DNA from: a virus
Lineage: Duplodnaviria; Caudoviricetes
Length of the DNA stretch: 64,000 nucleotides
IMG/VR virus record: IMGVR_UViG_2914436621_000001
Coordinates: 53,490 to 117,489 of that record
Direction: 5' to 3' (one strand)
The notes below the pieces were generated by a model that saw only the letters and a program-made list of their open reading frames with translations, searched no databases and was not told where the DNA came from. Positions 19,450 through 53,556 of this stretch are shown piece after piece; position 1 is the stretch's first letter; the number at the start of each line of letters is the position of its first letter. Position numbers and translations under genes: made by a program.

Positions 19450-19890
19450 TCAGGCACGTTCGAGGTGATCGACGGACAATTCAACTTCCAGCATTGCCGC
19501 ATCACTCGAATCCAAGTCGGCTTCCGGGTCTTTGAATTTGATAACCTGGCAGCCGTAATAGGTGCGTGGCTTACCAAACTGCGTTCTTTGTTTGTCCTGC
19601 TTGATCGACTGAACTGTGACTGACACATCCCCTGGCTCACCGTTATCCCGGTAGTTTTGCCACCAATCAACGATGGGGGCATCCTCTTCGGGATGGTAAG
19701 GTTTTGCGAGCTTCAGGTTGCCAACCTTGCTCACGCCTCGAACGGTCTTTTTCTTGCGATCGTTCGGGTCAACGTAATCACCCGTCTCAAACTCCTCTTC
19801 ACCGCCAGCACACTTGCTCCAAGTGCCCTTAATGCCGGCGATCGTAATTAAATACGCACTCTTAGTAATTGGTCGAAGTACCTTTGCCAT
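19450..19890 (-). CDS. Tail tube protein (T4 gp19-like)
   Basis: 146 aa, follows sheath; IVDWWQ...YYGCQVIKFKDPEADLDSSDAAMLEVEL. Confidence 0.8.
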   Translation of the reverse strand: MAKVLRPITKSAYLITIAGIKGTWSKCAGGEEEFETGDYVDPNDRKKKTVRGVSKVGNLKLAKPYHPEEDAPIVDWWQNYRDNGEPGDVSVTVQSIKQDKQRTQFGKPRTYYGCQVIKFKDPEADLDSSDAAMLEVELSVDHLERA

Positions 19891-21082: not shown

Positions 21083-21089
21083 TGGCAAT

Positions 21090-21137: not shown

Positions 21138-21680
21138 TTATTGGCTAGAATTTCGGCGATCGCGCTGCATTCGTCGATCGCCCGCTGTTCGATAGCCTTT
21201 TGGTCTAGGGACTGTGTACTGCCGGATCGCAGCGCGATCGCCACTCGCCAGGCGGCTAACAATTTCGGCGTATTCCCGTTGGGTAGTTCCCCTGGGAACT
21301 CGCACTAACTTTCGAGGATTTGCCGTTTCGAATATTTGTTTGTTGATGGCGGCAATCTTCGCCTCCGTCCGTCCAACCCGTCTTGGATTCAGCGATTGCT
21401 CCAGGCTTTCACGAAACAGTTGGCGTTGCCTCTCTCGGCTTTGCCTGGTTGAGCCAAGCGTTGATTCGATGACATTTTTGGCGTTTTGGCGATCGATCGC
21501 CTTTGTTGCCTGCGCCCCCAATCCCTGCAACTCGTCCATGCGAGACTGAAGTTGCCCCAGCAGACGCTTACGTTCTCGAACCGTGAACGGGACGATGTTG
21601 TTATCCCCGGTCAGGCGCTCAACGGTTTTCCCGGTGGGTTTGAATTTGCCGCCCTTCCAGCTCCCTCCTTTTGATGCCAT
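21138..21680 (-). CDS. Basic protein with N-terminal MASKGGSWKGGKF tag (tagged protein 4)
   Basis: Arg-rich 180 aa ORF between neck genes and sheath; shares N-terminal peptide with three other ORFs. Confidence 0.8.
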   Translation of the reverse strand: MASKGGSWKGGKFKPTGKTVERLTGDNNIVPFTVRERKRLLGQLQSRMDELQGLGAQATKAIDRQNAKNVIESTLGSTRQSRERQRQLFRESLEQSLNPRRVGRTEAKIAAINKQIFETANPRKLVRVPRGTTQREYAEIVSRLASGDRAAIRQYTVPRPKGYRTAGDRRMQRDRRNSSQ

Positions 21681-23731: not shown

Positions 23732-24727
23732 CTACTGGTTGATATCCTTCAGGGCTGCTACGCACTTGGGCTGGCGAATCTGGAATTGAGCCTGGAGCGA
23801 AATCTCCATCTCAAGTAGATGAGGGTTACGATTTTTCAGTTCAGCAACCAGGAAGTTCATGCCCATCGTCTTTTGAGCATTGGTCATTGCGCCGACTACC
23901 CGCCCATTTTCGTCCTTCACTTCGCCCAACGCATAGGTCTTGAGCTTGAGCTTGCGGAAGTCGAGGAAGAACACCGTCCCATCAGGGCAGGCAGTATCTT
24001 CGATGATGGGCACACGCCGATAAGCGTGACCGCTAAAACCCACGTCAGCAATACCGTTGAGCTGGTTCACCGTGAGCGATCGCTCGGCATTGAACGTATC
24101 TTCGTACTTTTTGATGATTTCAGGGGTGGTGTAGATGTGGGTGTAGGTCATGCCGCGACGCTTCACCGCTGTATCAACCCCATCCATCAGTGCCTTAGAC
24201 AGGTTGCGACCCGTGCCGCCATTTGCCATTACGGTTGCCGCCCAATCAGGGTAGGTTGCCGTCGCAATACCTGCATAGGCAGGGTTGGTCAAGACGTTGT
24301 TTAGGCCATAGATTCCGTGCGATGCTGCCGTACCGTCTCCGGTGTAGATAGCTTTATTCAGTTCAAACGGGATAATCTCAAATGCCCGTTCGATGTGCAT
24401 ACCAAACAGAGCCTTCAAAGCGCCTGGACCAGTACGCTTTGCCTCTGCAATTTTGTTGCGAAGCACCTGAAATCCATGCCCTAGAACGCGATCGCCGATG
24501 GGTAGGTTTGCTTGCTTGGTTGCATCTGCATTATCGGTGGAAGCATCAGCAGTCGTTGCTCGTCCGTGAGCTTGCCCGCCTCCTAGCGTTACGTCCCACT
24601 TCACCTGGGACTGGTATTCGTCTTCTTTGAGCAAGTTGCTGAGTAGCGTAAAAGGACGAAACTCAACTTTCTCGATTTCTTCTTCGATCAGGAGGCTAAG
24701 TGCCTCAACGGGAGCAAGAGTTGACAT
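23732..24727 (-). CDS. Major capsid protein (HK97 fold, putative)
   Basis: 331 aa after scaffold; ELNKAIYTGDG...IYGL, PIIEDTACPDGTVFFLD motifs. Confidence 0.85.
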   Translation of the reverse strand: MSTLAPVEALSLLIEEEIEKVEFRPFTLLSNLLKEDEYQSQVKWDVTLGGGQAHGRATTADASTDNADATKQANLPIGDRVLGHGFQVLRNKIAEAKRTGPGALKALFGMHIERAFEIIPFELNKAIYTGDGTAASHGIYGLNNVLTNPAYAGIATATYPDWAATVMANGGTGRNLSKALMDGVDTAVKRRGMTYTHIYTTPEIIKKYEDTFNAERSLTVNQLNGIADVGFSGHAYRRVPIIEDTACPDGTVFFLDFRKLKLKTYALGEVKDENGRVVGAMTNAQKTMGMNFLVAELKNRNPHLLEMEISLQAQFQIRQPKCVAALKDINQ

Positions 24728-24806: not shown

Positions 24807-25445
24807 CTAGAATGCGGCAGCTAATGCCTCTCCAGCCTTCGTAGTTGGCTCTGGAGTGGGAGTGGTGGTTTTGGATTCAGTAGACCCCGCGCCCTGGGTT
24901 GTGCTGGCAGGGACAAATACCTTGCCCTCGTCAGTCCCCAAATAACCCTTCATCGCATCATCCAAGGTGGCAACCTGTTCGCCATTTTTGACATACCAAA
25001 TGCCGTTCTCCTCAGTGAGCTGCCCGCCGTTGCGAGCTAGAAATGCTGTGTGCAACAGCCCTTGATTGATAGTTCCAGCTTTGGCGATCGCCTCCGACAC
25101 AGAGCTGCGTTTCCGAGCTTCGAATGCCTGAACTTCCTTCTCTTTGAGCTGACTTTGCAGTGTTTCAAACTGCTTTGCCTGCTCCTGTAACTGGGTTTCG
25201 AGCGCTTTGAGGCTGAGCCTACCTTTGTCGGTTTCAGAAGTTGGGTTGGTAGGGTCAGGTTGGGGTGGCTGCGGTTGCGGTTGAGGTGCAGGTGGGGTTT
25301 CACCTAGCTTTTTAATTTGCCGTTCCAAACTGGCGGCAAGGCCACTGTTCGCAGTATTGACCTGATTCATCAAGGTTGTGCTTAGGGTCGTGTTGTTGGC
25401 TTCCAGCATTTGCTGCACCAACGCGCGGATCTGTGCTTCATCCAT
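24807..25445 (-). CDS. Capsid scaffolding protein (putative)
   Basis: Coiled-coil, Pro-rich linker, GAGS near C-terminus; directly upstream of MCP. Confidence 0.7.
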   Translation of the reverse strand: MDEAQIRALVQQMLEANNTTLSTTLMNQVNTANSGLAASLERQIKKLGETPPAPQPQPQPPQPDPTNPTSETDKGRLSLKALETQLQEQAKQFETLQSQLKEKEVQAFEARKRSSVSEAIAKAGTINQGLLHTAFLARNGGQLTEENGIWYVKNGEQVATLDDAMKGYLGTDEGKVFVPASTTQGAGSTESKTTTPTPEPTTKAGEALAAAF

Positions 25446-25683
25446 AAATTGTTTAAATTCCTTGCTGGATATCCCCTAGAACATCCCTGGGGTTCGGGCT
25501 TCTCCGGTTTACGCCTTCCCGGTTGGCATTGAAAAAGCGATCGCCCATACAGAAGTAGGAAGGGGCGATCGCCAAAGGGAAATTTGAAGAATCTATCTAT
25601 TGGCTTTGTCCAAATTAATTTGAGCGCTTCTTGCAAAAGAGTGCTCAACTGGTAGACTGAGATAAAAACTAGTGAGTAGAAAC

Positions 25684-25902
25684 ATGGGACGCAAAAAGCT
25701 AGACCGAAGGGAATTCAAAGCCAATGTTGCTCCTGAAACGCCTGATCGCCTTCATGCGATCGCTCGCTCAGTCGGCTTAAAATATGGTGAAGGTGGCAAT
25801 ATTGGAGGGTTGCTGGATCTCATAGCGAAGAGAGGGCAGGTGTCTGACTTGGCGGGAAAAAGTTTTTTGATTGTCCCTCTTGACATAGAAACTAGTGAGT
25901 AG
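25684..25902 (+). CDS. Small putative DNA-binding (RHH-like) regulator of moron cassette
   Basis: MGRKKLDRREFKANVAPETPDRLHAIA...NIGGLLDLIA; own promoter TTGCAA-N16-TAGACT (25631-25658). Confidence 0.6.
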   Translation: MGRKKLDRREFKANVAPETPDRLHAIARSVGLKYGEGGNIGGLLDLIAKRGQVSDLAGKSFLIVPLDIETSE

Positions 25903-25909
25903 TTATAAC
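25880..25909 (+). promoter_or_regulatory. Sigma70-type promoter with embedded operator repeat
   Basis: TTGACA-N18-TATAAC; spacer contains AAACTAGTGAGTAG (25889-25902), also present at 25666-25679. Confidence 0.7.
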
Positions 25910-26119
25910 TGATTCAGTTGGGGAGCGGCACCCCATTAAAAAAGCCTTCCGGTAGCCCCAGCCAGGAGATGGGGACAGGTTCAACCCCTTGGTTGAGGCT
26001 CTAATCTCACCACCGCGCAACGGTACGGTGCCAGTCCCAAGTCTGGATAAAGAGAGAGGGGAGTCCACGCGGCCTCGCTACAACGCCGCATCTGCAAACC
26101 ACTACGGAGAATTCAATCC

Positions 26120-26836
26120 ATGCAATCCACCATCGCTTCATTTCAAATCACCGCTCAGTCTGCCTGGTCAACGCTACTCATCTGCGATCGCCAAGCCCGC
26201 AAAGATGCAGCTAAGGTTGGCCGCTTCACCCGCTCAACCTACCGCATTTTGAAAAGCCCAAGCGCTATCAAAACCTACCGCTGCATTGGGTTAGCGCTTC
26301 AAATCGCTGGACTGACGGCGATCGCTCTTGGCTCGTCTATCCGTGAAGCTGTCCGGGTCTTCCGGCAATGGGCTGATGCCTACGTTGAATCGTGCCTGGA
26401 GCAGCCTGCGATCGAGGTAGTAGAGCCTCAACAGGTAAGCGAACCCCATGAGCGTTGCGAGTTCGTAATGCTGCTGAACGGGTACACCATTGCGGCTTCG
26501 CCCGAAAGAGCGGCGCAAGTTAGAGCAGAGCAGAACGCCTTGGCTCAAGCCATGATGGGCCGTGGGTTTACCGTCTCTGATCCCTGGAGTCTTCCCCTAG
26601 AACAGGCTGTGATCGAAGAGGCGATCGTTCAGCCTCAACCCTCTCCTCAACCCTCTCCTCAACCCTCTCCTCAACCCTCTCCTCAACCCTCTCCTCAACC
26701 TCTGTTGCTCTTGCCAGCCGCAGCGGAACTCGTTCAACCCAAGAGCAAGCGCAGCAGATCCCGCAAAGCGGAGGCGGCTCCAGCTCAACCCAAGGGCAAG
26801 CGCGGCAGACCTCGTAAGGCTGAGGTGGTAGCGTAG
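26120..26836 (+). CDS. Moron protein with hydrophobic segment, PQPS repeats and C-terminal AT-hook-like KRGRPRK
   Basis: GGAG RBS upstream; stop abuts the portal stop. Confidence 0.7.
   Translation: MQSTIASFQITAQSAWSTLLICDRQARKDAAKVGRFTRSTYRILKSPSAIKTYRCIGLALQIAGLTAIALGSSIREAVRVFRQWADAYVESCLEQPAIEVVEPQQVSEPHERCEFVMLLNGYTIAASPERAAQVRAEQNALAQAMMGRGFTVSDPWSLPLEQAVIEEAIVQPQPSPQPSPQPSPQPSPQPSPQPLLLLPAAAELVQPKSKRSRSRKAEAAPAQPKGKRGRPRKAEVVA
26633..26700 (+). repeat. 12-bp tandem repeat (CCTCAACCCTCT) x5 plus partial
   Basis: Direct reading; encodes PQPS repeats. Confidence 0.95.
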
Positions 26837-26837
26837 T

Positions 26838-28400
26838 CTATGCCGCAGCAGGCAGGGGATCGTCTCCTGCCTGCTGAATTTGCTTCATCTTCACTGCTTC
26901 CACCGCGTCTTTCAGCAGGGCAGAGCGATCGAACAGTTGCTCAATTTCTTCTGCAATCTGTGCCTGCTGCTCGGCTGAGGCATTTTTCACCAGCAAGTTA
27001 GAGAGCTGCTGGTAGAACAGTTTTAGCACCGTGATCGGGAGGTGATCTTCAATCTGGGTGATTTCAATCGCGATCGCCAGCATGGTCTCTAGTGAATCAA
27101 CATCGAATGAGTCAAGCCCTGTAACCGAAATGGTTTCAGCTTCCTCTTTGCGATGACCCGCAACGATCGCCACCAGTTGTAGGAGGTCTTGATAAGCATC
27201 ACAAACCAGTGAGCCGTAGCTTTTGAGAATCAGCTCCTGCACCACGTAGTCGAGCTTCTTGCTGATACCCGATTGCTCAACTGCTCCCTTGGTCGCTGAT
27301 GCGCGTGCCATGCCAATCATGTCCTGAATGACATCGCGAATTTCCTGAAGTACGCCTCCAACTGAGGCAAGGGAGGTTCCCTGAGCTTCGCTGAACGAAA
27401 AATCTCCCTTGATGACGTACTGATTCCCGGTCTTTAGCTCCTCTTCTGTATCGACAAAGGTGTGGTCAAGGTCGGTGTCTGCCACGACATGTGGCTTCCA
27501 GGTGCGCTGAACATAGCCCACCATCTCTGCGGTATCTGACCTGGAATTTTCCAGCCTCAGATGTTCTAACGCTTTGAGATACGCCTGGTTGGTCACCCAC
27601 AGGTCGTCTGGTACCTCCATCATCACCACAGGCAGCTTCCCCGCCCGATGGGGCACTGCCCGCAAGAGGGAAACTTTGGCATCTTCACCTGTCTCCAGCG
27701 TGTCGCCTTTCTGGTTAACGAGTTCGGCGATCGCCCCACCCTTCCCCAGCTTGACAAACGCTTCGTATTTGGCAGTATGGGTGCCAGTTATGAATGTCCA
27801 GGTTGCTTTGAGGGCAGGTTTCGCAAACGGACTGGTAACCGTGGTTACCTGCCGGATTTTGATCCAATCCAGCGCGGTTGTATCCCCTTCTCCCCAATTC
27901 GTGACGTGCAGTGGCGTGTAGAGGCAGATGTATGGACTTGCCCCTAATGCCTCCTCTTCCTGCTTTGTTCTAGGGGAGACTTCTAAATAGGGTTTTTCAA
28001 CGTGTAGATATACCCGTTTGAATTTGAGCGCGTCCCTGAACGTTTCTGTGAGCAGTTGCTTTTCACTGCGTCCCTTACGATTATTATTCTCTCGAAATTT
28101 TTGCCAGAACTTATCGTGGGATTCCAGTCCGGTGACAGAAAGGCTACTGCTGCTCAGTTTTGAGGCTTGTTGGGCGATCGCGCCCCCTAGAACATTGGTG
28201 TAGGTGAATTTCTGCAACCGCAGTTCATACAGTTCCTGCTCCTCACCTGTTCTCGGCTTGAGATATTGCCGCTTTTTTGCTTCAAGTTGATGGCCCCCGG
28301 CTGCGAGGTCATCAATGCGAGTCAGGGTAGGAGCGATCGCCATATAGTCTGGATGCTGTGTTTCCAGGGTTTTAAGCGGGAGAAAATCAGGAAAATCCAC
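26838..28400 (-). CDS. Portal protein
   Basis: 520 aa, HPDY N-terminus, YLKPRTGEE..Y..RL, QSGISKKLD motif; between terminase and scaffold. Confidence 0.85.
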   Translation of the reverse strand: MDFPDFLPLKTLETQHPDYMAIAPTLTRIDDLAAGGHQLEAKKRQYLKPRTGEEQELYELRLQKFTYTNVLGGAIAQQASKLSSSSLSVTGLESHDKFWQKFRENNNRKGRSEKQLLTETFRDALKFKRVYLHVEKPYLEVSPRTKQEEEALGASPYICLYTPLHVTNWGEGDTTALDWIKIRQVTTVTSPFAKPALKATWTFITGTHTAKYEAFVKLGKGGAIAELVNQKGDTLETGEDAKVSLLRAVPHRAGKLPVVMMEVPDDLWVTNQAYLKALEHLRLENSRSDTAEMVGYVQRTWKPHVVADTDLDHTFVDTEEELKTGNQYVIKGDFSFSEAQGTSLASVGGVLQEIRDVIQDMIGMARASATKGAVEQSGISKKLDYVVQELILKSYGSLVCDAYQDLLQLVAIVAGHRKEEAETISVTGLDSFDVDSLETMLAIAIEITQIEDHLPITVLKLFYQQLSNLLVKNASAEQQAQIAEEIEQLFDRSALLKDAVEAVKMKQIQQAGDDPLPAAA

Positions 28401-28451
28401 GGTCAGCCTCGGTGTCTGGGTAGCCTAATAGTTGGAAATGTCCAGTTGAGG

Positions 28452-28817
28452 ATGGCATCAATGACAGAGCAGGAATTCACGGGCAGCCTAATCATTCCGT
28501 GTGAGACTGGAAAAGTGTCAGATGGCTACCATACTTTTGATGAGTTGTATGAGCATCGATGCTTGCTGTTTCTGGCACTGATGCGATCGCACCCCCACCA
28601 GTCCTGGAAATCCAGGAAACATCATGATGGCAGCGTATTTGAAGGTTGGTTTATTGCAGGGCTAATACTCCCAAGCGGAGCCGTGACCTACCATCTGCCA
28701 GACAGGATGTGGAACTTGTGCCGATGCCACGAGGTTGAGCTTGCTCCTGAATGGGATGGGCACACATCGAAGGATGTAATTGATAGGTTGACCCAGTGGC
28801 TAGGGGACGATCGCTAA
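28452..28817 (+). CDS. Conserved phage protein (YHTFDELYEHR...WDGHT type)
   Basis: Motifs SDGYHTFDELYEHR, WKSRKHHDG, TYHLP, APEWDGHT. Confidence 0.75.
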   Translation: MASMTEQEFTGSLIIPCETGKVSDGYHTFDELYEHRCLLFLALMRSHPHQSWKSRKHHDGSVFEGWFIAGLILPSGAVTYHLPDRMWNLCRCHEVELAPEWDGHTSKDVIDRLTQWLGDDR

Positions 28818-29360
28818 ATGCTTACATCCAGCTCACTCCAGCGTGAAACTGCTCAAACGACGGTAAAACTCCGTCGTCTCACGTCGGAACTAAGAACCGA
28901 TCGCCTTCCCCTAGAACAATGGCAATCCCGCTTCACCGACACGCTCAGAGCAGCCCATCTGAGTGCCGCTGAAATTGCCGCTGATGGAACGCTGACACCG
29001 CCGTATGAGGCGATCGTGGATGAGGTGTTAGCGGAAGAGTTGGATTATTTGAGCAAGTTCGCCGATGACCTTGCCAGTGGGCAGTATGACGAAGAAGTTA
29101 GCCCGGTTCGCTACACTGCGCTAGAAAGAGCAGGGCTATACGCTGCCGCCTTGGCGTTGACCTACTCAAGGGCAACCATTCTCACTCGCCAATCACAAGG
29201 CCACACTCAAGCCTGGAGACGGCTGAATGCACTTGCTCGCAGTTGCAAGCAATGCGTTGAGTATCAGACGTTTGGCTGGGTGGGAATTGATGAAGTGGTG
29301 GCGATCGGGCATCGTTGCGCGTGTCGTGGACGCTGCAAATGCCATATCTCATTCAGGTAG
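28818..29360 (+). CDS. MuF/gp7-like head morphogenesis protein (short form)
   Basis: ERAGLYA, WRRL...CKQC...C.CRGRCKC C-terminal Cys motif as in MuF-like proteins; adjacent to portal but inverted. Confidence 0.55.
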   Translation: MLTSSSLQRETAQTTVKLRRLTSELRTDRLPLEQWQSRFTDTLRAAHLSAAEIAADGTLTPPYEAIVDEVLAEELDYLSKFADDLASGQYDEEVSPVRYTALERAGLYAAALALTYSRATILTRQSQGHTQAWRRLNALARSCKQCVEYQTFGWVGIDEVVAIGHRCACRGRCKCHISFR

Positions 29361-30409: not shown

Positions 30410-31780
30410 TCAAGGGTTGTGGCCATCTCCTGTTAAATGGTTGAATTGCAGGCTGGCCAAACAGTAACGCAGACTATCACTTCTATGGTCAACCTGCCCT
30501 GGCGCTACTTCATCTTTCACATTTCCATCTTTATCAACTGCTCTGTGATAGCTACGCAACTCGTCCACAAAACTCACTTCTTCGGCTTCATTGCTGAGTT
30601 CAGAACTGATATACAACTTGTCTTGATAGAAAAAGCTGTTTACAACCTGAATTCCTTCCTTGATTCGGTTAAATGCTTTGACCGAACGCTGTAATCCTTC
30701 AATGCTGTGCTTTTTGCCTGCTTTACGAAATTCCAGAATTGAAGCGGGTCTAGACGGGTCGCAAAAAACACGCCTGACATTCCACTTGCGTGCCAATTCA
30801 ACCGCTTTGCTGACGTGATCATCAATTGGCACGGTCAAGCCAGTTGTGCTGTGCCAAGCGTCTAGCACGTAGTAAATTCCATCTGCACTCTGACCAACCA
30901 CGACCAAAGCGGGGTGTGTATCACCCCAGTCACAAGCCATCCAGGTTGTTCTGAATGCCTTAGGCAGCTCATCTGCAATGTGATGGTCTTGTAAATGCTC
31001 AAAGATTTGCCCGCTGAAGCTCTCCCAGCTTGCCTCAAACTCCTGCTGAAAGAGTTTTTTCGGCATTCTACGACGGGCGCTTTCAATGTTTTCCTTTGGG
31101 AAATGTGGGTTGTCTGCGGTAGTTTGATGCAGGTAGAAGAAGTCTGGATCTTCTTGAGCCTCGGTGCAGAATTTGTGGAAATAAGATCCCTTGCCCTTGG
31201 GTGTGCCGATTACTGTAGCTGAATAGTTCCTGTTTCGCCCCAGCGCAGGCAAAAGCACGGTATCCCAAAATCCATGCCCAAAGTCTTGGAACTCGTCACA
31301 GCCTGCCCAAACTGGGTTAATGCCTCGCAGTGCCTCACCGTTGTGAACGCCTCGCAGCATAAGCGATGGGCGATCGCCAATAAAGTCAATTCGATAGCGC
31401 GACTTATCGAGCTTTTTAACCCAGTGTCGCAGCGAACCGCCAACATCAAAAGCATTAAGCAGCGCTTGCCAATGGATATCAATTGCTTGCTTCATCCACG
31501 GCATCAAGATGACTGCAACTTGTGGCGATCGTGGGTTGATCTTGCCTTTGTACCCCAGGCAAAACTGAATCGCAGTGGTCTGAAGCAGTACTGATTTACC
31601 CCAGCCACGACCAGCCAATACAAGTTTAACCTTGGCCGAATAGTCAAAGACTAGTTGCTGATTCTCATGAAAGTCTGTGGGAGGGAGTTTAAGCTGCTTC
31701 GCTGTAAGCGGACGCTTGATCTTCGCCTTCAGCTTCGGCGATAGGCTCTTCGTCCTCAATGGTAGGGTCGATAACGTCAT
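30410..31780 (-). CDS. terL: Terminase large subunit
   Basis: Walker A GRGWGKS, Walker B CDEFQD, GTPKG, nuclease DWG, DPS, DHRSDSLRY. Confidence 0.95.
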   Translation of the reverse strand: MTLSTLPLRTKSLSPKLKAKIKRPLTAKQLKLPPTDFHENQQLVFDYSAKVKLVLAGRGWGKSVLLQTTAIQFCLGYKGKINPRSPQVAVILMPWMKQAIDIHWQALLNAFDVGGSLRHWVKKLDKSRYRIDFIGDRPSLMLRGVHNGEALRGINPVWAGCDEFQDFGHGFWDTVLLPALGRNRNYSATVIGTPKGKGSYFHKFCTEAQEDPDFFYLHQTTADNPHFPKENIESARRRMPKKLFQQEFEASWESFSGQIFEHLQDHHIADELPKAFRTTWMACDWGDTHPALVVVGQSADGIYYVLDAWHSTTGLTVPIDDHVSKAVELARKWNVRRVFCDPSRPASILEFRKAGKKHSIEGLQRSVKAFNRIKEGIQVVNSFFYQDKLYISSELSNEAEEVSFVDELRSYHRAVDKDGNVKDEVAPGQVDHRSDSLRYCLASLQFNHLTGDGHNP

Positions 31781-32135
31781 AGCCCGCCGTCATTACTGCC
31801 TTCAGATGGTCTTCCAGGTCGAAATAAAGCCCAAGTAGCTTTGCCTCGTCCTGTGCAATTTGGAAAGCAGCGCCCCATTTCTCGTTTTTGTAAGCTTTGT
31901 TGTAGAGATCTCGCCGGATGGCGACATGCTCTGCGCGGGCAATCTCACGATCGACCGCAATATCCTGGGTCATCCGCTCTCTGGCACGGGAGATATATTC
32001 ATCCGTTTGCCGAGTGGAGAGTCCCCACTCACTAGCGGCATACCGCAGGATGTGTTGTCTGGGTTCGCGCCTGAGCAGCAGAAGATAGACAGCGTGAACT
32101 CGCTGCTCCAGTTCCGCGTCGCTCGATTTATTCAT
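31689..32135 (-). CDS. Terminase small subunit (HTH)
   Basis: WGLSTRQTDEYISRA HTH, EAKLLGL motif; directly upstream of terL. Confidence 0.7.
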   Translation of the reverse strand: MNKSSDAELEQRVHAVYLLLLRREPRQHILRYAASEWGLSTRQTDEYISRARERMTQDIAVDREIARAEHVAIRRDLYNKAYKNEKWGAAFQIAQDEAKLLGLYFDLEDHLKAVMTAGYDVIDPTIEDEEPIAEAEGEDQASAYSEAA

Positions 32136-32149
32136 GTTCTAGGGGATTG

Positions 32150-32347
32150 TTATGAGGCCGTTTCAGGCGGCGCAAATCCGGTCATTGCGCCCGTAAAAGC
32201 GTCGATGACTCGTCGAGGAAACTGCTGCTCCATTTGATCCAATAACTCGTCTTCTGACAGGTCGGGCTGGTTGTCTACAAACTCAACCAGCCGCTGAAGC
32301 TGTTCAGATTCTTGAGGCGATAACTCTTCGTTCATGGTGCGATTCAA
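32150..32347 (-). CDS. Small acidic protein
   Basis: 65 aa, Glu/Asp-rich, between tagged protein 3 and terS. Confidence 0.6.
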   Translation of the reverse strand: MNRTMNEELSPQESEQLQRLVEFVDNQPDLSEDELLDQMEQQFPRRVIDAFTGAMTGFAPPETAS

Positions 32348-32395
32348 ACACTAATCCAGTATTAACAATCCTGCTGGCCTTTGATAAGCGGGAAT

Positions 32396-32986
32396 TTATC
32401 GATTGATAGCACGTTCGCGATCGCGCTGTCGTCGAAGCTGCCGATAATTTCCTTCAGCAACCTGCCCGGCAGGGGTGTTTGTTTCATATTGCCTCAACGT
32501 TGCATTGTCGGGCGTTAGCTTGCCGTTGCGGACGATCGCGTACTGGGTACCTCCTGCCCGCCCTGCAACAGGTCGAGAAAAGCCAGCAGACTCATAAGCC
32601 ACGGCACGGGTTGCACCTCGACTGTCTCCAATGACGGCATTGCATTCATATTTAAATCCATCAGGGCGAGTGGAGGCATCGTGAGTTATGATTCGACGGA
32701 TTTTGAGAGCGGCTAAATCCGCCTCTCGTCCCTTTAACGCTCCGGCAGTCGAACTGCCATTGACGCTAAATGAAACCGAATGTGAATCTGGATCGAAGAA
32801 GTCAGGCAAGATGTTTAAGCTAACTTTGTTGTCGCCAGACTTAAACTCATAGGTTTGAAAGCCACCTATTTTTTCGGCAGTTACCCCATCTGGTAATTTG
32901 GGCTGGCGACCGCCCTTAACCTCGCTAGAACTTTTGACGGCAAGCGCAAACTTCCCGCTTTTCCAAGAGCCGCCTTTGCTTGCCAT
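32396..32986 (-). CDS. MASKGGSWKSGKF-tagged protein 3 (possible GNAT-like fold)
   Basis: Shared N-terminal tag; R...YESAGF resembles the GNAT C-terminal motif (weak). Confidence 0.8.
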   Translation of the reverse strand: MASKGGSWKSGKFALAVKSSSEVKGGRQPKLPDGVTAEKIGGFQTYEFKSGDNKVSLNILPDFFDPDSHSVSFSVNGSSTAGALKGREADLAALKIRRIITHDASTRPDGFKYECNAVIGDSRGATRAVAYESAGFSRPVAGRAGGTQYAIVRNGKLTPDNATLRQYETNTPAGQVAEGNYRQLRRQRDRERAINR

Positions 32987-32995
32987 CAGATTTGC

Positions 32996-33649
32996 CTAAA
33001 TTTCCATTAATTGAACAATGGTCGATCGCCCCTCAGTTCTCTTCCCGGTCACCGTAAACCGAGACCCTGGAGGATAAAGGACTTCTCGCTCCCCTCTGTA
33101 GGAGCTAAGACGGCTGAGGTCTCTAGCATTCTTGCCAGTTGCATTGATCTCAAACTGCAAGTTACCCGATCGCCGCCGATCAGCCCTGGCAGATGTGCTC
33201 ATGAATCCCTTGTCGGTGTAGGTTTCGCCAACCCTAATCGACGAAATCACACTTTGAGAAACCCCTATCCCTCGATAAACAGTTCCTGTATGAGGTGGCA
33301 GCTTTTGTAAAGCCGATGCAGCAAAACGACCATCTAGCTCAAAGTTGCGACGGGCGCGATCGCTGAGATAGCTCAAGTCGCCCCCTCTAAGCAGAGTGTT
33401 GATGTTGCTGTAGCCATAGGTCGTGTAGTAGCGGAGGGCGGCGTACTCTTCCAGGTTGAGGTTGCCTAAATCCTTCGATCGCCCCTCTCTCATGTACCGC
33501 TTCAGCATCCTCTCCCTGGCACCGCCTCCCTCCATGCTCTTGAGATAGGTTTGGCGTAATTCCTCGGTGGAAGCAGTCTGGGTGGGGGCAGCTTGCATTT
33601 TCACGGGAGCAAACGTCCCGCTTTTCCAACTGCCGCCTTTGCTTGCCAT
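32996..33649 (-). CDS. MASKGGSWKSGTF-tagged ADP-ribosyltransferase (VIP2/C3-like, R-STS-ExE)
   Basis: YT..GYSNINTLLR, VYRG, FMSTS, EREVL catalytic motifs. Confidence 0.92.
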   Translation of the reverse strand: MASKGGSWKSGTFAPVKMQAAPTQTASTEELRQTYLKSMEGGGARERMLKRYMREGRSKDLGNLNLEEYAALRYYTTYGYSNINTLLRGGDLSYLSDRARRNFELDGRFAASALQKLPPHTGTVYRGIGVSQSVISSIRVGETYTDKGFMSTSARADRRRSGNLQFEINATGKNARDLSRLSSYRGEREVLYPPGSRFTVTGKRTEGRSTIVQLMEI

Positions 33650-34867
33650 TTAAACCTCGGCGTAATAGTCACTAAACCCGTCCGGGTTGAACGCCAGATA
33701 GGGCAGATTGTGGTCGTCAACCAGTTGAATCCAGCCCCCGCTGCTGTCACGTTTGGCAGCATATGCAAAGCAGGCAGCTCGTGCCGGAGAAGCTTTGATT
33801 CGGGCATCACTCCAAACCATTTGCAGCAGATCTCGATAGGTCATCCAGTTCGACCAGTTCTCTGCTTCTCGGCACACCTGGTGAGCTGTCGCCCCAACGT
33901 AATGCCCGATGCACAATTTGCCTTTGGGGAATTTGGGGCAGAGAAAGTCTGCAAATTCGTTGAAGCTGATCAGGTCTGTGGTCTGAAGTTGGCGATCATG
34001 GCACCAATTCACAAAGTCCTGAAGTACTCCAAATGTTTTGGGATAGAGCTGGTGATACGGCTCGAAGTAGTTGGAGCGGTTGGGTTGTCCTGCGCTGAAC
34101 ACTTCTAACCCCACGTCGGTGACCATCTGCCGCAGCTCCAGCCACTGCTGAAACTCATCCGGGTCAGGGTTACGTTTCTGCGCCCGTTTGATGATGCTCT
34201 CCCCGATCGCCTCCCTCCCCCGTTGCGGCATATTGCGGAGTTGTTTGTAGTTGAAGTGGATGGTTTCCGTCCAGACGCCATGCACACCACAATCTTTCAA
34301 CCGCTTCAGCAATTTAGGCGCTTGTTCTAGGGGAAGCCATTCTGGAGTCCACGGGTTCAGCCCGACGTTAACGGTGTGGCCTCTGCTGGTGAGCGTTTCG
34401 AGTAGGGAGAGGCGATCGCCAATCGACGGTGCACCTGGCTCAAGTCTGGCTCGAAGGTCATCGTCGAGCATGGCAATTGACACATACCAGCAGCTCGGCG
34501 GCAGGAATTCTAGCGCTTCCTCAATCCCTCGTCCCCCTTTGGTCTGGAGAGCGATCGGGATGCCTAGCTCAGTCATAGTCCGCATGACTGGGATGGACTG
34601 CTGGAAGTTGGAGGTAGCGAACGGATCAACACGGTTGGAGATGAGCACACCGTAGCCTTGTTGCAGTAGTTTTGCTTCTAAGGTCTGGCGGTTGTGATAG
34701 TCAGAGAGCAGCCGCATTGTCGCTTTAATGTCAGCGCGGCGATCGGGCTGGTTAAGGTTGGCGAAGCAATAGTGACAATTGTGACTACACCAATTGAATG
34801 AGGCTTCGAGGGGGAGCGGTGAGATCAAAAGCTCCCCATAGTAAACGCTGATGCTATCTCCAGCCAT
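33650..34867 (-). CDS. Radical SAM enzyme (spore photoproduct lyase-like)
   Basis: CSHNCHYC (CxxxCxxC), DPF, QTKG, LEPGAPS..RL motifs typical of the SPL/SplB-like clade. Confidence 0.88.
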   Translation of the reverse strand: MAGDSISVYYGELLISPLPLEASFNWCSHNCHYCFANLNQPDRRADIKATMRLLSDYHNRQTLEAKLLQQGYGVLISNRVDPFATSNFQQSIPVMRTMTELGIPIALQTKGGRGIEEALEFLPPSCWYVSIAMLDDDLRARLEPGAPSIGDRLSLLETLTSRGHTVNVGLNPWTPEWLPLEQAPKLLKRLKDCGVHGVWTETIHFNYKQLRNMPQRGREAIGESIIKRAQKRNPDPDEFQQWLELRQMVTDVGLEVFSAGQPNRSNYFEPYHQLYPKTFGVLQDFVNWCHDRQLQTTDLISFNEFADFLCPKFPKGKLCIGHYVGATAHQVCREAENWSNWMTYRDLLQMVWSDARIKASPARAACFAYAAKRDSSGGWIQLVDDHNLPYLAFNPDGFSDYYAEV

Positions 34868-34916
34868 TGTTTTCCTTTGCTAAAACTTTTATACAGGCTT
34901 GGCTTCGCGCCTCCCG

Positions 34917-35516
34917 TTAGCCCTGTTCCGCTGCCCGACGAGCAGCTTTGGCAGCTCTGCGTTCAGCTTCCTGTCGCTGCTGCAAGGCATCGTTTCTTTG
35001 CCGTGCATCTCGCTCCATCCTTGTGAAGGATGGGTTCCTGCCCGATCGCCCAACCAGTTCAGATCGGAACGTCTGAACAACTCTTTCGTTGTTTCTTTCA
35101 GCGGTAGACATTCGGTTGTACAGGGATTCTGCGATCGCCTGCGCCCCAGCGCTGACACGAACCCCCAAACCCGCATCTGAGGAGGCGATCGCCTGAATAC
35201 TTTGATTACTGATGACTGCGATGACGACATCCGCCTTGCCTTCAGCAGACAGTCGGTCAAAAGTGTCTGGATTTTTTAGATATTGCAATCCTTGCTCCAG
35301 TCGAGTGGTTGGGCCGCCCAATTCCTGCACTTCTCCCGATCGCTGATCGAATGGAGTGCTTTGTAGCGCCTTCACCTCTGCAATAGTCTGCTCAGCAAAT
35401 GAGGAAACTTGGCTGTCAGTTGGAGGGCGATCGCCATTTAAGGCTTCAGCCCCACCACTTTTTGAGGTGGCCGCAGCAAATTTCCCGCTCTTCCAAGAGC
35501 CGCCCTTACTCGCCAT
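34917..35516 (-). CDS. MASKGGSWKSGKF-tagged protein 1
   Basis: Shared N-terminal tag; start overlaps ParB-like gene end; Arg-rich C-terminus. Confidence 0.8.
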   Translation of the reverse strand: MASKGGSWKSGKFAAATSKSGGAEALNGDRPPTDSQVSSFAEQTIAEVKALQSTPFDQRSGEVQELGGPTTRLEQGLQYLKNPDTFDRLSAEGKADVVIAVISNQSIQAIASSDAGLGVRVSAGAQAIAESLYNRMSTAERNNERVVQTFRSELVGRSGRNPSFTRMERDARQRNDALQQRQEAERRAAKAARRAAEQG

Positions 35517-36192
35517 TCAGCCGTACCCCTAGTTCCATTATTTTGAGGAGCGTTTTTGTGTCGTCCTTTGTCTCCAACACGACCTTGAAACCTTCCCACA
35601 TCTTCTTTTGAGCGGAGGACAGCACGATCGCCAACGGATATTTCTCCTGCGGCGATTTGGAGACAGCGGTATCATCCTCCCCTTCCTGTTCTCCTTCCCC
35701 TAGAACAGAGCGATCGCTATCACTGTCATCTCCATCGCCAATCACCTGGGATGACTGGAATTCAACCCCCTCGTCTTCAAGGAACTTGTCAATTTCTGCG
35801 GGATCGAAGCCTGTCAGCCCTAAATCAAAATCCAGGCTATCTAGATCTTCGAGTTCGATAGAGAGAGCTTCATAGTCATAGCCTGACTCGGCAGACCGAT
35901 TGTCTGCTAACCGTGCCGCCTTCTTCTGAGCTTCTGATAGGTCAGCTCGGACGATGACGGGTACGCGGTCTAGACCCAGTCTAAGAGAGGCTTCTCGTCG
36001 TCCATGCCCCTTCAGGATGATGCCCTGCTCATCCACTACGATGGGTTGGTCGAAACCGAATTCTGCGATCGCTCCTGCAATCTTGTCGATCTGGCTGGTG
36101 GGATGCTTTTTGACATTGTTAGCGTAGGGAGTGAGGCTGTCAGGGTGACGCCACTCGATTTCAGCAGAAAAGACGGTTTTAGATTTGGACAT
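35506..36192 (-). CDS. ParB/Srx N-terminal domain protein
   Basis: LTPYANNVKKH, IAEFGFDQPIVVD, ILKGHGRREA, RLADNR motifs. Confidence 0.9.
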   Translation of the reverse strand: MSKSKTVFSAEIEWRHPDSLTPYANNVKKHPTSQIDKIAGAIAEFGFDQPIVVDEQGIILKGHGRREASLRLGLDRVPVIVRADLSEAQKKAARLADNRSAESGYDYEALSIELEDLDSLDFDLGLTGFDPAEIDKFLEDEGVEFQSSQVIGDGDDSDSDRSVLGEGEQEGEDDTAVSKSPQEKYPLAIVLSSAQKKMWEGFKVVLETKDDTKTLLKIMELGVRLNGE

Positions 36193-36234
36193 AGGGGACA
36201 AAAACGCTCTCACCTATGGGATTTGTCCAGAACC

Positions 36235-37206
36235 TCAAACATCCATCAGATCTGCTAGCATCTCCGTCACCTTGCCCTGGGCATTGACGCGATTGTCGTC
36301 GTAACGCATGAGAACCTCAGGCTTGCGGTGACGGCTCAGCTTCATGGTTTCCCGAATATTGCCATTGCTGGCATCCAACGCCGCCGTAATCCCGCTGTGG
36401 CGGCAGCGGTGGGGTGAGAACCGCTTTTTGATACCCGCCTTCTCTGCCAACTGAAACCGAACTAAGTGATAGAGTCCGTCTCCAGTCAAGCGTTGACCAA
36501 AGTGGGCGCGATCGACTGCAATAAATAGCGGTGACTTGGGCGCGCGATCGCCCCTTGCTTCCAGCCACACCTGGAGGGCTTCAACTGCGGCACTGCTCAG
36601 GCTAACCGATTCTTTCTGGGTGCCCCTCCCCTTCCCCAGGATGGCTAGAGTTTTGGCTTCAGGATTAAAGTCTGCAACGTTGGCAGAACAAATCTCATTA
36701 CGCCGCAGCACATTATCCCAGAGCAGCCGTAGGAGGGCGTAGTCACGCTTACCCTTAAGCGTTGAGCGATCGACGACTTGAAACAGCAGCTTGAATTCCT
36801 CTGGAGTAATGCCCGTGGTATCCCGATAGGTCTCGGTTTTCTCCAGTTCAATTTCTTCTAAGCTCCAAACACATTTGCCTACTTTCTGTGCAAAGGCAAC
36901 GAGTGACTTAATTGCAGACAGCCGTACATTGACGGTGGATTCGCTCAGCTCTCGTTTAATCAGTTGAGCTTTATAGTGCAACACCAGTTTGATGGCAGTG
37001 GCACGCTCCAACTGAAGGAAATGCGCGACAAGTGCCGGGTCAGGCTCTTTGCCACTGATGACTTCAAAGAAATCCTTTAATCCCCTGGCATAAGTGCGAC
37101 GGGTGCTCTCGCTCCGCTTGTCTGCCAGTAATTCTTGGATGAGATCTCGCTCCTCTACCAAATCGAGAAAGAAGGGAGACGAGGAAGAAGGGGCGATCGC
37201 ACTCAT
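36235..37206 (-). CDS. Second tyrosine recombinase (XerC/D-like resolvase)
   Basis: SAM-like N domain (STRRTYARGL, STVNVRLSAIKS), RDYALL..LRRNE, GKG, SPHRCRHS, RH...Y. Confidence 0.92.
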   Translation of the reverse strand: MSAIAPSSSSPFFLDLVEERDLIQELLADKRSESTRRTYARGLKDFFEVISGKEPDPALVAHFLQLERATAIKLVLHYKAQLIKRELSESTVNVRLSAIKSLVAFAQKVGKCVWSLEEIELEKTETYRDTTGITPEEFKLLFQVVDRSTLKGKRDYALLRLLWDNVLRRNEICSANVADFNPEAKTLAILGKGRGTQKESVSLSSAAVEALQVWLEARGDRAPKSPLFIAVDRAHFGQRLTGDGLYHLVRFQLAEKAGIKKRFSPHRCRHSGITAALDASNGNIRETMKLSRHRKPEVLMRYDDNRVNAQGKVTEMLADLMDV

Positions 37207-38226: not shown

Positions 38227-38667
38227 TTAGAGTAGGGTTCTGACAATTTCAGCCAACCGCAACAAGGCTTCGTAGTACGTCTCTTGCAAGTAACGCTCAA
38301 AGCTATCAGTCAGGGTTGAATGGGCAAAGTAATGTGCCATCAGTTGACCCAGCTCCGGGCAGTCTGGCTCGAAGTGTTGGGCGATCGCGCTGCTGTAGGG
38401 TTCTGGCAGCCGATAGAGTGCCTTCCGCATCGTGTCGCTGTCGAGTTGGCTCTCTAATGGGCGACCAGGAATGAGTTGTTCTAGGGGAAGGTACAGACGG
38501 GAGAGATCGTAGACCTCGTCGAGTGTTCCTGCCCAAAATTTAGCTAGGCAATCTTCCAGTTCAGCCAGGTCAGCGTAGCTTGTGACCGTATCAATCTCGT
38601 CGATCGCATCTGAAACCGAGACGAAGGCATCTTCCAGGGTGAGGGTTTCAAGCATGTCCGCCTCCAT
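38227..38667 (-). CDS. Acidic hypothetical protein
   Basis: ORF in minus-strand operon. Confidence 0.6.
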   Translation of the reverse strand: MEADMLETLTLEDAFVSVSDAIDEIDTVTSYADLAELEDCLAKFWAGTLDEVYDLSRLYLPLEQLIPGRPLESQLDSDTMRKALYRLPEPYSSAIAQHFEPDCPELGQLMAHYFAHSTLTDSFERYLQETYYEALLRLAEIVRTLL

Positions 38668-39040
38668 CAATACTGAAGAGGTTGGCGCGGAAATCGGAAC
38701 GGGAACCACATTCTTGGCGAGCCAGTTCTTTCTCTGCTTTGGCAGTCAGCAGACGGGTGTCGTGTGCTTCGTCAATTTCGATGATCCGCTGCATATTCGC
38801 CGCCATCCATCGCCGAACTTCAGCCTTCTGTCGAGACGACATCTGCCCATCTTTGAGATGCTCTTCGACAATTCGCAATGCTCCCTGGCGGGTAGAGCGG
38901 CTTTTACTTTTAGTGCCAAGCCGTTTTTTTAGGTTGTAGTGAATCGTGGAGCGGGGAGTTTGAAGATGCTTTTCCAGCGCTCTGACAGTCCAACCCCGAA
39001 GAAATAATAGGCAGGCGCGATCGGCTATGGCGGCATTCAT
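38648..39040 (-). CDS. HTH protein (possible late-gene regulator)
   Basis: GWTVRALEKHLQTPRSTIHYNL HTH; heads the cluster upstream of packaging genes. Confidence 0.55.
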   Translation of the reverse strand: MNAAIADRACLLFLRGWTVRALEKHLQTPRSTIHYNLKKRLGTKSKSRSTRQGALRIVEEHLKDGQMSSRQKAEVRRWMAANMQRIIEIDEAHDTRLLTAKAEKELARQECGSRSDFRANLFSIDGGGHA

Positions 39041-39243
39041 GATGAATCTGTGGCGAGTTGGGTGGGGGCCGTCATTTCTCGCTACAGACCGAAGAGAAGG
39101 CGATCGCCGTCTGAGCAGAACCAATGAAAGGCGTATTTACAATCTGCCCTGTCCTAAATTTAGTAGTACTAGTGATTCAACGGAAACTCTTCATATTGAG
39201 TTGCAAAAGATACTGTGTAGTTCCCGTAAAGTGGTGCTTCTGA

Positions 39244-40077
39244 TTAACTAGAAAACCGTGATTTTAACCGCATCCATTGGCTGCGTAGCCACCAGAACTT
39301 GCTAGATTCCATCGCATCAACTCTGGATTCGGCGCGCTTGAGGCGATTACGCACCTGCTTCAATTCACGATGCATCTGCTCTACTTCTGCTGTTACGGGA
39401 TTTGGAGCATCTAGAGATTGATAAAATTCAGCGATCGCTTGCCGGTTGCTCGTTTTTCCTTTCACCCAATAGGCTTGATCTGTCTCGATGCGTTCAAGCA
39501 GTGGCTTTTCACTATGCCTGACACAAAAATCGTAGAAAGCCTCTCTACATCCCTCCCAATAACCAAAATCGTCTAGAACGGTACAGCCGCCATTGGGAAC
39601 CAACGGGTAAAACTTTTCCAGTACTTCTGTTACGGAAGAGTACCAGTCCGCATCACAGTGCAGGAGTGCAACTTTGGTTGGACCATCTTCCTGAAATGTG
39701 TCACTAAACCATCCTGCTTTAATGATGTAGCGCTCAGATGATGTGCCGACGCGCTGCATTACTTCATGCACGTCATTGGGACTGGCAGCACACTCACCGA
39801 TGTACTGTTTAGCGTCCTCTCCATCTCTCTCTGTGGTCTGGGGCATCCCCTGGAACCCTTCATACAGCCAGAGGCGGCGATCGCCCATAAATTGCGACAA
39901 GACTGCCGCCGATCCTCCTTTAAACGCACCGCATTCGACAATGTCGCCTTCAATCCTCTGATTATTCAAGTATTGGCAAATCCGAATTAAATTTTTCAGC
40001 CGTCCCTCTGACAGCAGGGTGTGCGATCGAACTTGCTCAATTAGAGATGCGATTGCCTTGGGCGAATAATCTTGCAT
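39244..40077 (-). CDS. TylF/MycF/NovP-family O-methyltransferase
   Basis: EGDIVECGAFKGGS, FQGMP, GWFSDT, ALLHCDADWYSS, LDDFGYWEGCREA. Confidence 0.9.
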   Translation of the reverse strand: MQDYSPKAIASLIEQVRSHTLLSEGRLKNLIRICQYLNNQRIEGDIVECGAFKGGSAAVLSQFMGDRRLWLYEGFQGMPQTTERDGEDAKQYIGECAASPNDVHEVMQRVGTSSERYIIKAGWFSDTFQEDGPTKVALLHCDADWYSSVTEVLEKFYPLVPNGGCTVLDDFGYWEGCREAFYDFCVRHSEKPLLERIETDQAYWVKGKTSNRQAIAEFYQSLDAPNPVTAEVEQMHRELKQVRNRLKRAESRVDAMESSKFWWLRSQWMRLKSRFSS

Positions 40078-40087
40078 TTCCTTCCCC

Positions 40088-40645
40088 CTAGAACGTGATT
40101 TTGCCAATTCGCCACGCTAACTGCCTGCCAACCCGACCTGCCTTGGTAAAGGTGAACCCATAGCGATCGCCTGCTTTTGGGGCAATGCCCAGAATCTGGC
40201 GGAGCTGCGAACTGCTGACAGTCCAACCCTGTTCGCAAATTTCCTGGAGCTGACGTTGTGGAGCAAGGGGATCAGAAGCCGGAGGTTGGAGGCGGGCGGC
40301 GATCGCTTCTACAAATAGGAGCCAGGCTGGGGATGTGGACAAATCAGCCGACGTGTGAACAAGTTCATGGACGGGTGCGTTGCGTTCACGAACTTGTTCA
40401 CCTTGAGAACTGGATTGAGCATAACTTACTGCAAACTCTGCTGCCGCTGCTGGGTTCTCAGCCAAGAGCCGACAGTACTCATCTAGCGCTTTTAGCTGCT
40501 CAAAGGTGATAAATGCTGCTTTACCAACCCTGAACGGCTTGATGTTCAGGATGCCCATGTATTCGTACACCTTGGTTTTGCCAAGGGTGTAGCGATCGGG
40601 GTAGAGGCTGGCGACGGGGATTTTATCAATCACTTCTGCACTCAT
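40088..40645 (-). CDS. HTH-type plasmid-like DNA-binding protein
   Basis: RYTLGKTKVYEYMGILNIKP N-terminal HTH-like region. Confidence 0.55.
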   Translation of the reverse strand: MSAEVIDKIPVASLYPDRYTLGKTKVYEYMGILNIKPFRVGKAAFITFEQLKALDEYCRLLAENPAAAAEFAVSYAQSSSQGEQVRERNAPVHELVHTSADLSTSPAWLLFVEAIAARLQPPASDPLAPQRQLQEICEQGWTVSSSQLRQILGIAPKAGDRYGFTFTKAGRVGRQLAWRIGKITF

Positions 40646-53298: not shown

Positions 53299-53556
53299 AA
53301 GGTTTCCCCTAGAACGGAATGTCGGAGACGCGGCTCCAATCTGGATGGAGTGCAAACGTTAGCGCGGCTGTGAGCGTAGGAAATAGGGTGTAGGGTTGAA
53401 GCGGCTCAATTTCTGGATGTGGATCGGTGTAGATGCAGAGATTCCAACCGCCATCAACCTCAAAGATTGAGAATAGCAAGAACTTTACCTGAAACGGAGA
53501 CGGAAGAGTGGTGGAGCGATCGCCCTTTTGCTGGTGACAAGAGGGCGATCGCGTTA

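Follow-up and report, generated by a model that had tools for sequence, protein, structure and literature searches.

The DNA considered here is a stretch of 64,000 nucleotides (hereafter the window), corresponding to positions 53,490 to 117,489 of the virus record IMGVR_UViG_2914436621_000001, and the genes in question are located in a prophage of the myovirus type (Table 1). Upstream of its terminase genes, and in the order of transcription, this prophage encodes a tyrosine recombinase, a protein with a ParB/Srx-like domain (hereafter ParB), a protein A, a radical SAM enzyme (rSAM), proteins B and C, and a small acidic open reading frame (ORF). Genes A, B, and C, along with a fourth gene, D, which is found 12 kb from the other three inside the tail/head module, open with an identical 13-residue element, MASKGGSWK[S/G]G[K/T]F, which we term the tag. 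As had been noticed in a first-pass annotation of the same DNA, the rSAM gene is lodged between two tagged genes, with A upstream and B beginning one base past the rSAM stop, the tag contains a K-G-G-S-W motif (residues 4 to 8 of all four copies in the window), and a ParB-like gene lies near the terminases. We find that the combination of ParB, rSAM, and tagged proteins is a real cassette, which is undescribed as far as literature searches show.

When back-translated, the tag pattern has four matches in the window, as against none in each of 100 dinucleotide-preserving shuffles, and these four are its sole matches across the 7.3-Mb genome. Synonymous codons differ among the four copies and, past residue 13, the tagged proteins are only 23 to 32% identical (compared with the first of the four). 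Hence, judging from the codons, the repeat is one maintained as protein sequence, with the peptide and not a DNA repeat under selection. The full window tag has no match in viral contigs, and the exact back-translated K-G-G-S-W-K has none in the 160 loci searched for it.

We read the rSAM neighborhoods in 21 loci besides the window; the tag counts below come from pattern searches together with the reading of ORF lists and are partial. For rSAM homologues of 31 to 61% identity, the start of a tagged gene coincides with the rSAM stop or follows it closely. The tagged ORF is found at this stop or within about 30 nucleotides (nt) of it in the window and in the loci L003, L002, L022, L010, L043, L055, L001, L016, and L298, and within about 105 nt in L028 and L083; over the loci with such a stop-adjacent tagged ORF, the identity of the rSAM to that of the window is 31 to 48%. 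The form closest to the window tag, M-A-[SA]-x-G-G-[SH]-W-K-[SG]-G-x-F, is shared by the window, L001, L016, and L298, looser forms are present in L010, L013, L055, L083, L028, L020, L022, L002/L012, L003, and L043, and Gly-rich basic M-A-G-G or M-A-V-G-G forms are seen in L007, L009, L018, and L081. In an alignment of 21 tags from 14 phage loci, the features kept more widely are the pair Gly5-Gly6, followed at position 8 by an aromatic residue and, 1 to 4 residues further on, by a Lys. A phage often has three to seven tagged genes (four in the window and in L001, three each in L010 and L003, and seven on the L016 contig). Besides full-sized proteins, there are tag-only microproteins of 35, 39, 39, and 45 amino acids (aa) encoded between the rSAM and terminase genes of L055, L028, L043, and L083. 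Further, a natural in-frame fusion of rSAM and tag exists (P0048, 467 aa, from a cluster of nine sequences); in an AlphaFold2 (AF2) model of this fusion, the predicted local distance difference test (pLDDT) of the tag is about 74, falling to 42, with no confident docking, which is uninformative either way. An unbiased sample of 14 rSAM loci, opened without prior knowledge of tags, contains M-A-S/A tags in six (the window, L001, L002, L003, L020, and L022), the Gly-rich basic variants in four (L007, L009, L018, and L081), and in one (L082) a different N terminus common to two genes.

The converse search, from tag to enzyme, gave a concordant picture. In IMG/VR, the strict tag pattern is present on three contigs, all three with an rSAM. 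Metagenome contigs yielded 43 stretches with this pattern, eight of which (on seven contigs) share their contig with the rSAM Cys motif; context was assessed for 13 of the 43, many of the other 30 being contigs of 1 to 3 kb. Wherever the context was readable, the strict tag was found only on rSAM-carrying contigs. The matches in L310, L314, L316, L322, and L341 are internal to other genes and were dismissed as chance; that in L314 is an M-A-x-x-G-G-x-W-K-x-G-x-F near the C terminus of a 1,107-aa tail-fiber-like protein (L314:8450-11773). A loose tag pattern gave 118 single matches in viral contigs, with the rSAM motif in only one locus, and these too were treated as chance, and when longer proteins were searched with a profile of the aligned tags, 11 matches were recovered, mostly the input sequences, with three new ones among them. 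The stop-adjacent tagged genes across distant phages, the microproteins, and the fusion bear out the earlier supposition that enzyme and tag belong together. We regard a functional coupling of the tag to the cassette as highly probable, and ordinary base modification, the conservative option raised at first, does not alone explain it.

Table 1. Features of the prophage and of the ParB-rSAM-tagged protein cassette, by position in the window
Feature	Position	Strand	Basis or remark
Tape measure	16057-18369	-	Family scans
Tail tube	19450-19890	-	Family scans
Tail sheath	19898-21088	-	Family scans
Tagged gene D, 180 aa	21138-21680	-	Just upstream of the tail sheath gene
Major head protein	23732-24727	-	PHROG scan
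Scaffold	24807-25445	-	PHROG scan
Portal	26838-28400	-	PHROG scan
Large terminase subunit (TerL)	30410-31780	-	Pfam Terminase_6N, weak, 19.3 bits
Putative small terminase subunit (TerS)	31689-32135	-	Position; likeness to genes preceding TerL in related loci
Tagged gene C, 196 aa	32396-32986	-	No known family
Tagged gene B, 217 aa	32996-33649	-	Start one base after the rSAM stop; ADP-ribosyltransferase, Alt/exoenzyme type
rSAM gene, 405 aa	33650-34867	-	CxxxCxxC at C27/C31/C34
Tagged gene A, 199 aa	34917-35516	-	Directly upstream of the rSAM gene; basic C terminus
ParB/Srx-like gene	35506-36213	-	PHROG 620 at 1.2e-47
Tyrosine recombinase	36235-37206	-	PF00589 at 6.2e-19; upstream edge of the cassette
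Tag, first 13 codons (genes A, B, C, D)	35478-35516, 33611-33649, 32948-32986, 21642-21680	-

The enzyme shows the conserved CxxxCxxC motif of the radical SAM superfamily and, in its AF2 model (pLDDT 94.6), the corresponding core in the form of a partial TIM barrel. Sequence families capture it poorly. The Pfam Radical_SAM model (PF04055) scores 27.6 bits, under the cut-off of 29.5, a Pfam scan gave no match to the model for spore photoproduct lyase (SPL) or to SPASM, and the NCBIfam families Rv2578c and PA0069 reach 40.4 bits (cut-off 430) and 33 bits (cut-off 360), respectively. The protein falls into PHROG 13321, labeled “unknown function,” and sequence and profile searches of the PDB returned no relative of it. 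A Foldseek search of the model against the PDB produced 133 matches at E <= 0.001, the best-ranked of those listed being radical SAM enzymes: the pyruvate formate-lyase (PFL)-activating enzyme comes first (E = 1.4e-7), followed at around 1e-5 by NifB, SPL, SuiB, HydE, and viperin. The SPL structure 4fhc (E = 1e-5, template modeling [TM] score by target length 0.46) ranks behind the PFL-activating enzyme and NifB, and the TM scores by target length are 0.46 to 0.52 for SPL as against 0.66 to 0.70 for the PFL-activating enzyme. These fold alignments span at most about 290 of 405 columns and cover the generic radical SAM core only, while the C-terminal region of some 120 to 200 residues found no structural match in the PDB; searches of the viral structure library BFVD and of a protein atlas likewise retrieved generic radical SAM neighbors only. 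The first rank of the PFL-activating enzyme probably reflects its minimal core, and a glycyl-radical reading was rejected, since neither a partner enzyme of that kind nor a corresponding motif is present.

The enzyme had initially been called SPL-like. What stands of this description is that some homologues are named “DNA repair photolyase” in their source annotations, and that the enzyme shares with the SPL/COG1533 group (Rv2578c and PA0069) the CxxxCxxC core, its best, though weak, family matches, and the appearance of SPL among the fold matches. What does not stand is membership: the family scores are far below their cut-offs, the Pfam SPL model is unmatched, and the C-terminal region lacks a structural counterpart. 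The companion remark that no SPASM domain is visible proved correct, as the only invariant or nearly invariant cysteines among 23 aligned homologues, and likewise in 24 sequences, are C27, C31, and C34. Judged by any tested feature, then, the enzyme is neither a peptide maturase of the SPASM type nor an SPL family member. Its own family is uncharacterized and mostly viral, with 269 matches on viral contigs and, in the protein collection, 102 relatives, many of which are on contigs of 55 to 68 kb; among 401 sampled genomes of the host's phylum, only the present one has it. In the homologue P0100 (708 aa), the CxxxCxxC motif is the exact site of an insertion of about 300 aa, intein-like and with homing-endonuclease-like motifs by eye, and the large terminase of L016 (827 aa; L016:6280-8763) seemingly contains an intein-like insertion too.

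These features bear directly on the mechanism first suggested for the tag. StrB, a radical SAM maturase of ribosomally synthesized and posttranslationally modified peptides (RiPPs), crosslinks Lys to Trp in K-G-D-G-W, and the darobactin enzyme likewise crosslinks Trp and Lys, as do StrB/SuiB. By analogy, the rSAM would join Lys4 of the tag to Trp8, and indeed the four window tags present K-G-G-S-W with the same spacing, and SuiB is among the fold matches (E = 1.8e-5). Parallels to RiPP maturases extend to gene order, in that the rSAM of L055, L028, L043, and L083 is followed by a short ORF (35 to 45 aa) with an aromatic/Lys/Gly motif, and to the single cluster of enzyme-substrate fusions, but in the window a 217-aa enzyme occupies the position of the short ORF. 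The proposed crosslink does not survive comparison across phages. Seven loci that keep G-G-x-W (L001, L010, L013, L016, L055, L083, and L028) have S, A, R, or G in place of Lys4; the tags of L020 and L022 have G-W with no upstream Lys; and Trp itself is absent from several tags (L003, L002/L012, L043, and L081). Unlike the streptide-type enzymes StrB/SuiB/AgaB, the phage enzyme lacks both the cysteines of a SPASM domain or auxiliary clusters and a domain for binding a leader; its core begins at about residue 20 (the first strand in the AF2 model), with the Cys motif at 27, leaving no room for such a domain. The SuiB match covers the core only, with a TM score by target length of 0.38. Further, unlike in RiPP precursors, the conserved element is at the extreme N terminus and heads full-size enzymes, and the setting is a phage packaging module with a ParB partner. 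We therefore consider a streptide-type Lys4-Trp8 crosslink very improbable; as the alignment suggests, the K-x3-W spacing is a local feature of the phage in the window.

The third component, the ParB-like protein, has an N-terminal domain that matches ParB-like partition, nuclease, and methyltransferase families of PHROG at 1e-45 to 1e-47, while Pfam ParB_N gives 23.3 bits, under its cut-off of 26.3. A ParB-like gene is directly upstream in the window, L002, L003, L009, L013, L016, L030, L039, L054, L055, L081, L082, and L298. These 13 partners align across the ParB domain and a private C-terminal motif, P-[LI]-A-I-V-L..W..K..D..AF..L, and nine of them show a G-[NH]-x-R box, the Gly of which is invariant in all 13; in BLASTP the window protein matches the L016 partner at 7e-12. 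The C-terminal motif, of a beta-helix-helix-like character, is predicted to adopt a DNA-binding fold. A ParB-like N-terminal domain beside a SAM-using enzyme and before the terminase recalls the fusions or neighborhoods of ParB and methyltransferases in phages, from which the present pair differs in that the partner is a radical SAM enzyme and in that the ParBs share a C-terminal motif of their own. An HU/IHF-like DNA-binding gene (92 aa; L002:9079-9357) adjoins the ParB-rSAM pair in L002, and a similar gene of 91 aa (19133-19408, plus strand) is found in the window on the opposite strand within the prophage tail module.

The phages that carry these genes differ in their heads. BLASTP comparisons of the portal and TerL of the window with those of L055 or L016 found no similarity (E = 0.026, 0.21, and 1.9); nonetheless, the window, L055, and L016 have in common a ParB, an rSAM (34 to 45% identity), and an almost identical tag. 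It follows that a head protein is unlikely as the conserved counterpart of the tag, leaving the enzyme, ParB, or DNA as candidate readers. Because portal and terminase are unrelated between carrier phages, the ParB-rSAM-tag combination appears to behave as a mobile cassette, whose position in most loci is immediately before TerS/TerL and whose bearers come from cyanobacterial, Bacteroidota, and high-GC hosts. The putative TerS of the window has no family match in a Pfam scan, and its position is equivalent to that of genes in L003, L009, L018, and L081. A search for TerL relatives in viral contigs found none, but three cyanobacterial prophages (L290, L291, and L292) have a TerL 37 to 38% identical to that of the window. 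These lack rSAM, ParB, and the tag pattern together: the block from the recombinase to gene C (32150-37206 in the window) is missing between conserved flanks, and what is kept comprises TerL, TerS, and relatives of the upstream genes at 38227-38709 and 38648-39124. The absence of the whole block makes the cassette look like an insertion that came with a tyrosine recombinase of its own.

What the tag heads differs from gene to gene. Gene B matches the ADP-ribosyltransferase families PF03496 (1.4e-14) and PF01129 (2e-10) as well as “Alt-like” and virion-protein families of PHROG, and its translation shows by eye the R, S-T-S, and E-x-E motifs. For gene A, a search among 5.8 billion proteins retrieved no relative but itself, and neither A nor C matches a Pfam, PHROG, or NCBIfam family. 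Elsewhere, PF03496 recurs in the 607-aa tagged protein of L010, ParB_N in a tagged protein of L022, and Pfam DnaJ (3.3e-9) in a 438-aa tagged protein of L020 (L020:8554-9870), so that the recognized cargo domains are the ADP-ribosyltransferase in two phages and DnaJ and ParB_N in one each. In L003, a 185-aa tagged protein (L003:9385-9942) shows an H-P-D motif by eye, with no Pfam match. Basic tails are frequent among the tagged proteins. The core domain of gene D has 27 relatives with varied N-terminal modules, and because of this the tag behaves as an exchangeable label. The C-terminal domain of gene D (around H-P-R-K-L-V-R-V-P-K-G-T-T-Q) occurs in proteins of 117 to 6,899 aa, once duplicated (P0105 to P0130), and its N-terminal partners include a Cys-rich G-K-P-C-G-x-G-W-I motif.

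This pattern brings to mind phage T4, whose capsid targeting sequence (CTS) is read by the scaffolding core and cut off by the prohead protease. Like the CTS of IPI to IPIII and Alt, the tag is a short N-terminal peptide on unrelated, fast-evolving proteins that include an ADP-ribosyltransferase, with the genes in or near the head module; those far from the rSAM and amid head and tail genes are gene D and the ones at 8766 and 11063 in L016. In T4, as put in an excerpt of PMC3012670, a shared N-terminal targeting peptide heads diverse injected phage proteins. Taking together the types of cargo, their place among head genes, and the T4 precedent, we think it rather probable that the tagged proteins are virion cargo.

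The same likeness lends itself to a second interpretation, in which ParB and rSAM would modify or repair the phage DNA, as a measure against restriction or damage, and the tag would be a separate signal for capsid targeting or ejection, recognized by a head component; the two would travel together only by virtue of one mobile pre-terminase block. That is the conservative way to read a ParB next to a COG1533-like rSAM; the T4 peptide sits on diverse internal proteins, with no modifying enzyme involved (PMC3012670), tagged genes also occur among head and tail genes at a distance from the rSAM, and the gene D core, with other N-terminal modules elsewhere, is what an exchangeable address label would produce. 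Set against this, phages whose portals and terminases are unrelated have nearly the same tag, the abutment of rSAM stop and tagged start persists down to 31 to 34% enzyme identity, a natural rSAM-tag fusion exists, and tag-only microproteins have no cargo to address. Unlike the CTS, the tag co-occurs with rSAM and ParB, and a prohead protease was not recognized in the head module of the window by PHROG scans of part of its ORFs. Such independent functions are, in our estimate, unlikely.

We instead propose that the rSAM is one part of a mobile cassette in three parts, comprising the ParB/Srx-like DNA-binding protein, the rSAM, and one to seven tagged proteins, and that the tag would serve as a handle by which the rSAM recognizes the tagged proteins and posttranslationally modifies them. 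This would amount to a RiPP-like logic extended to whole proteins as well as tag-only microproteins. The tagged proteins (the ADP-ribosyltransferase, the J-domain protein, the ParB-like protein, and others of no assigned function) would enter the particle together with the DNA and so reach the next host. The best-conserved candidate sites for modification would be Gly5-Gly6, the aromatic residue at position 8, and the Lys 1 to 4 residues downstream; a link from the aromatic residue to this downstream Lys is conceivable. That the rSAM directly modifies the tag of virion-delivered cargo is an inference to which we assign a probability of roughly 0.4.

Several observations weigh against this proposal. 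Over all tag variants in the 21-tag alignment, nothing after Met-Ala is invariant. The families nearest to the enzyme in sequence, however weakly, are of the “DNA repair photolyase” type, and it has neither SPASM/twitch cysteines (in the alignment of 23 homologues) nor an N-terminal domain resembling a RiPP recognition element (in the AF2 model and the Pfam scan). By DNA patterns, the tag is near the rSAM in only about 18 of 84 close loci, a figure that is a lower bound, given the narrowness of the patterns and the many contigs that break off close to the rSAM. The orthologous ParB-like protein is the more constant neighbor (13 loci, tag-less ones included), and in the unbiased sample 3 of the 14 loci (L030, L039, and L054) have ParB and rSAM with no recognizable tag, so that the enzyme can exist without a tag substrate. 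This asymmetry, in which rSAM was seen without tag but the strict tag never without rSAM, fits a primary DNA-directed role better. The rSAM has, or had, a tag-independent job, for which DNA is the obvious candidate given its DNA-binding partner and pre-terminase position.

The alternative to which these points lead is a DNA-centered coupling, wherein ParB would load the rSAM onto replicated phage DNA prior to packaging and the radical chemistry would take place on the DNA. The tag, with its Trp/Phe and Lys, would then either join the DNA covalently or bind a mark made by the rSAM, such that tagged proteins enter and leave the capsid with the DNA, whereas tag-less phages would only modify their DNA. 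Besides the presence of an orthologous ParB before the rSAM in 13 aligned loci, three of them without tags, this would be in keeping with the location of the cassette directly before TerS/TerL in most loci, the weak affinities of the rSAM to COG1533-type families, the frequent basic tails of tagged proteins, the strict tag not being seen without the rSAM although the rSAM occurs without the tag, and the retention of the tag across unrelated portals and terminases, where DNA is the sole partner common to all. On the other side, SPL is no closer to the enzyme in the fold search than other radical SAM enzymes are, the Pfam SPL model is unmatched, and by hand count the protein is slightly acidic (46 Asp+Glu versus 40 Lys+Arg), which is atypical of a DNA enzyme. 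A covalent DNA adduct would also need to be tolerated or removed after injection, and we know of no radical SAM enzyme that forms protein-DNA links. On balance, we hold this DNA-centered coupling to be somewhat unlikely.

In its most specific form, the rSAM, positioned by ParB on the DNA, would covalently join the Trp/Lys tags of effectors and microproteins to the DNA, the terminase would pump the effectors into capsids of any kind, and injection of the proteins would be coupled to that of the genome. Such a tether would explain both the one tag in unrelated heads and the lack of any tag without the enzyme, and it alone among the models would draw on each of the three conserved parts while accounting for the asymmetry of tag and enzyme. 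To our knowledge, however, covalent protein-DNA tethering by an enzyme of this sort has no precedent, and we deem it quite improbable.

Elsewhere in the prophage, two plus-strand ORFs run counter to the late operon, in the gap between the portal and scaffold genes (25672-26836) and in that between the portal gene and an HNH-like gene (28266-29360). Both are moron-like, and one of them has a Pro-rich repeat and a basic tail. In the early region, a 287-aa ORF (39244-40107, minus strand) appears by eye to encode a class I SAM-dependent methyltransferase of the TylF type.

Literature searches on radical SAM with ParB, terminase, or phage, on SPL with ParB-like proteins, and on capsid targeting sequences returned no description of the cassette; an excerpt of PMC10853773 concerns Dnd systems only and not this cassette.

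The loading of host-directed proteins into virions by phages is known for few models, such as the T4 targeting peptide. Against this background, the cassette described here is portable: phages whose heads and terminases are unrelated share one 13-residue label, one radical SAM enzyme, and one ParB-like protein. Should the tag be matured by the enzyme, as we propose, the reach of radical SAM peptide chemistry would come to include whole proteins and the assembly of virions, and the tag would be a transferable label for packing chosen proteins into phage particles. If the enzyme works on DNA, phages would have either a novel kind of DNA modification or a means of linking protein to DNA. In both cases, the cassette gives a role that can be tested to a sizeable family of viral radical SAM enzymes that is annotated as “unknown function” or “DNA repair photolyase.”

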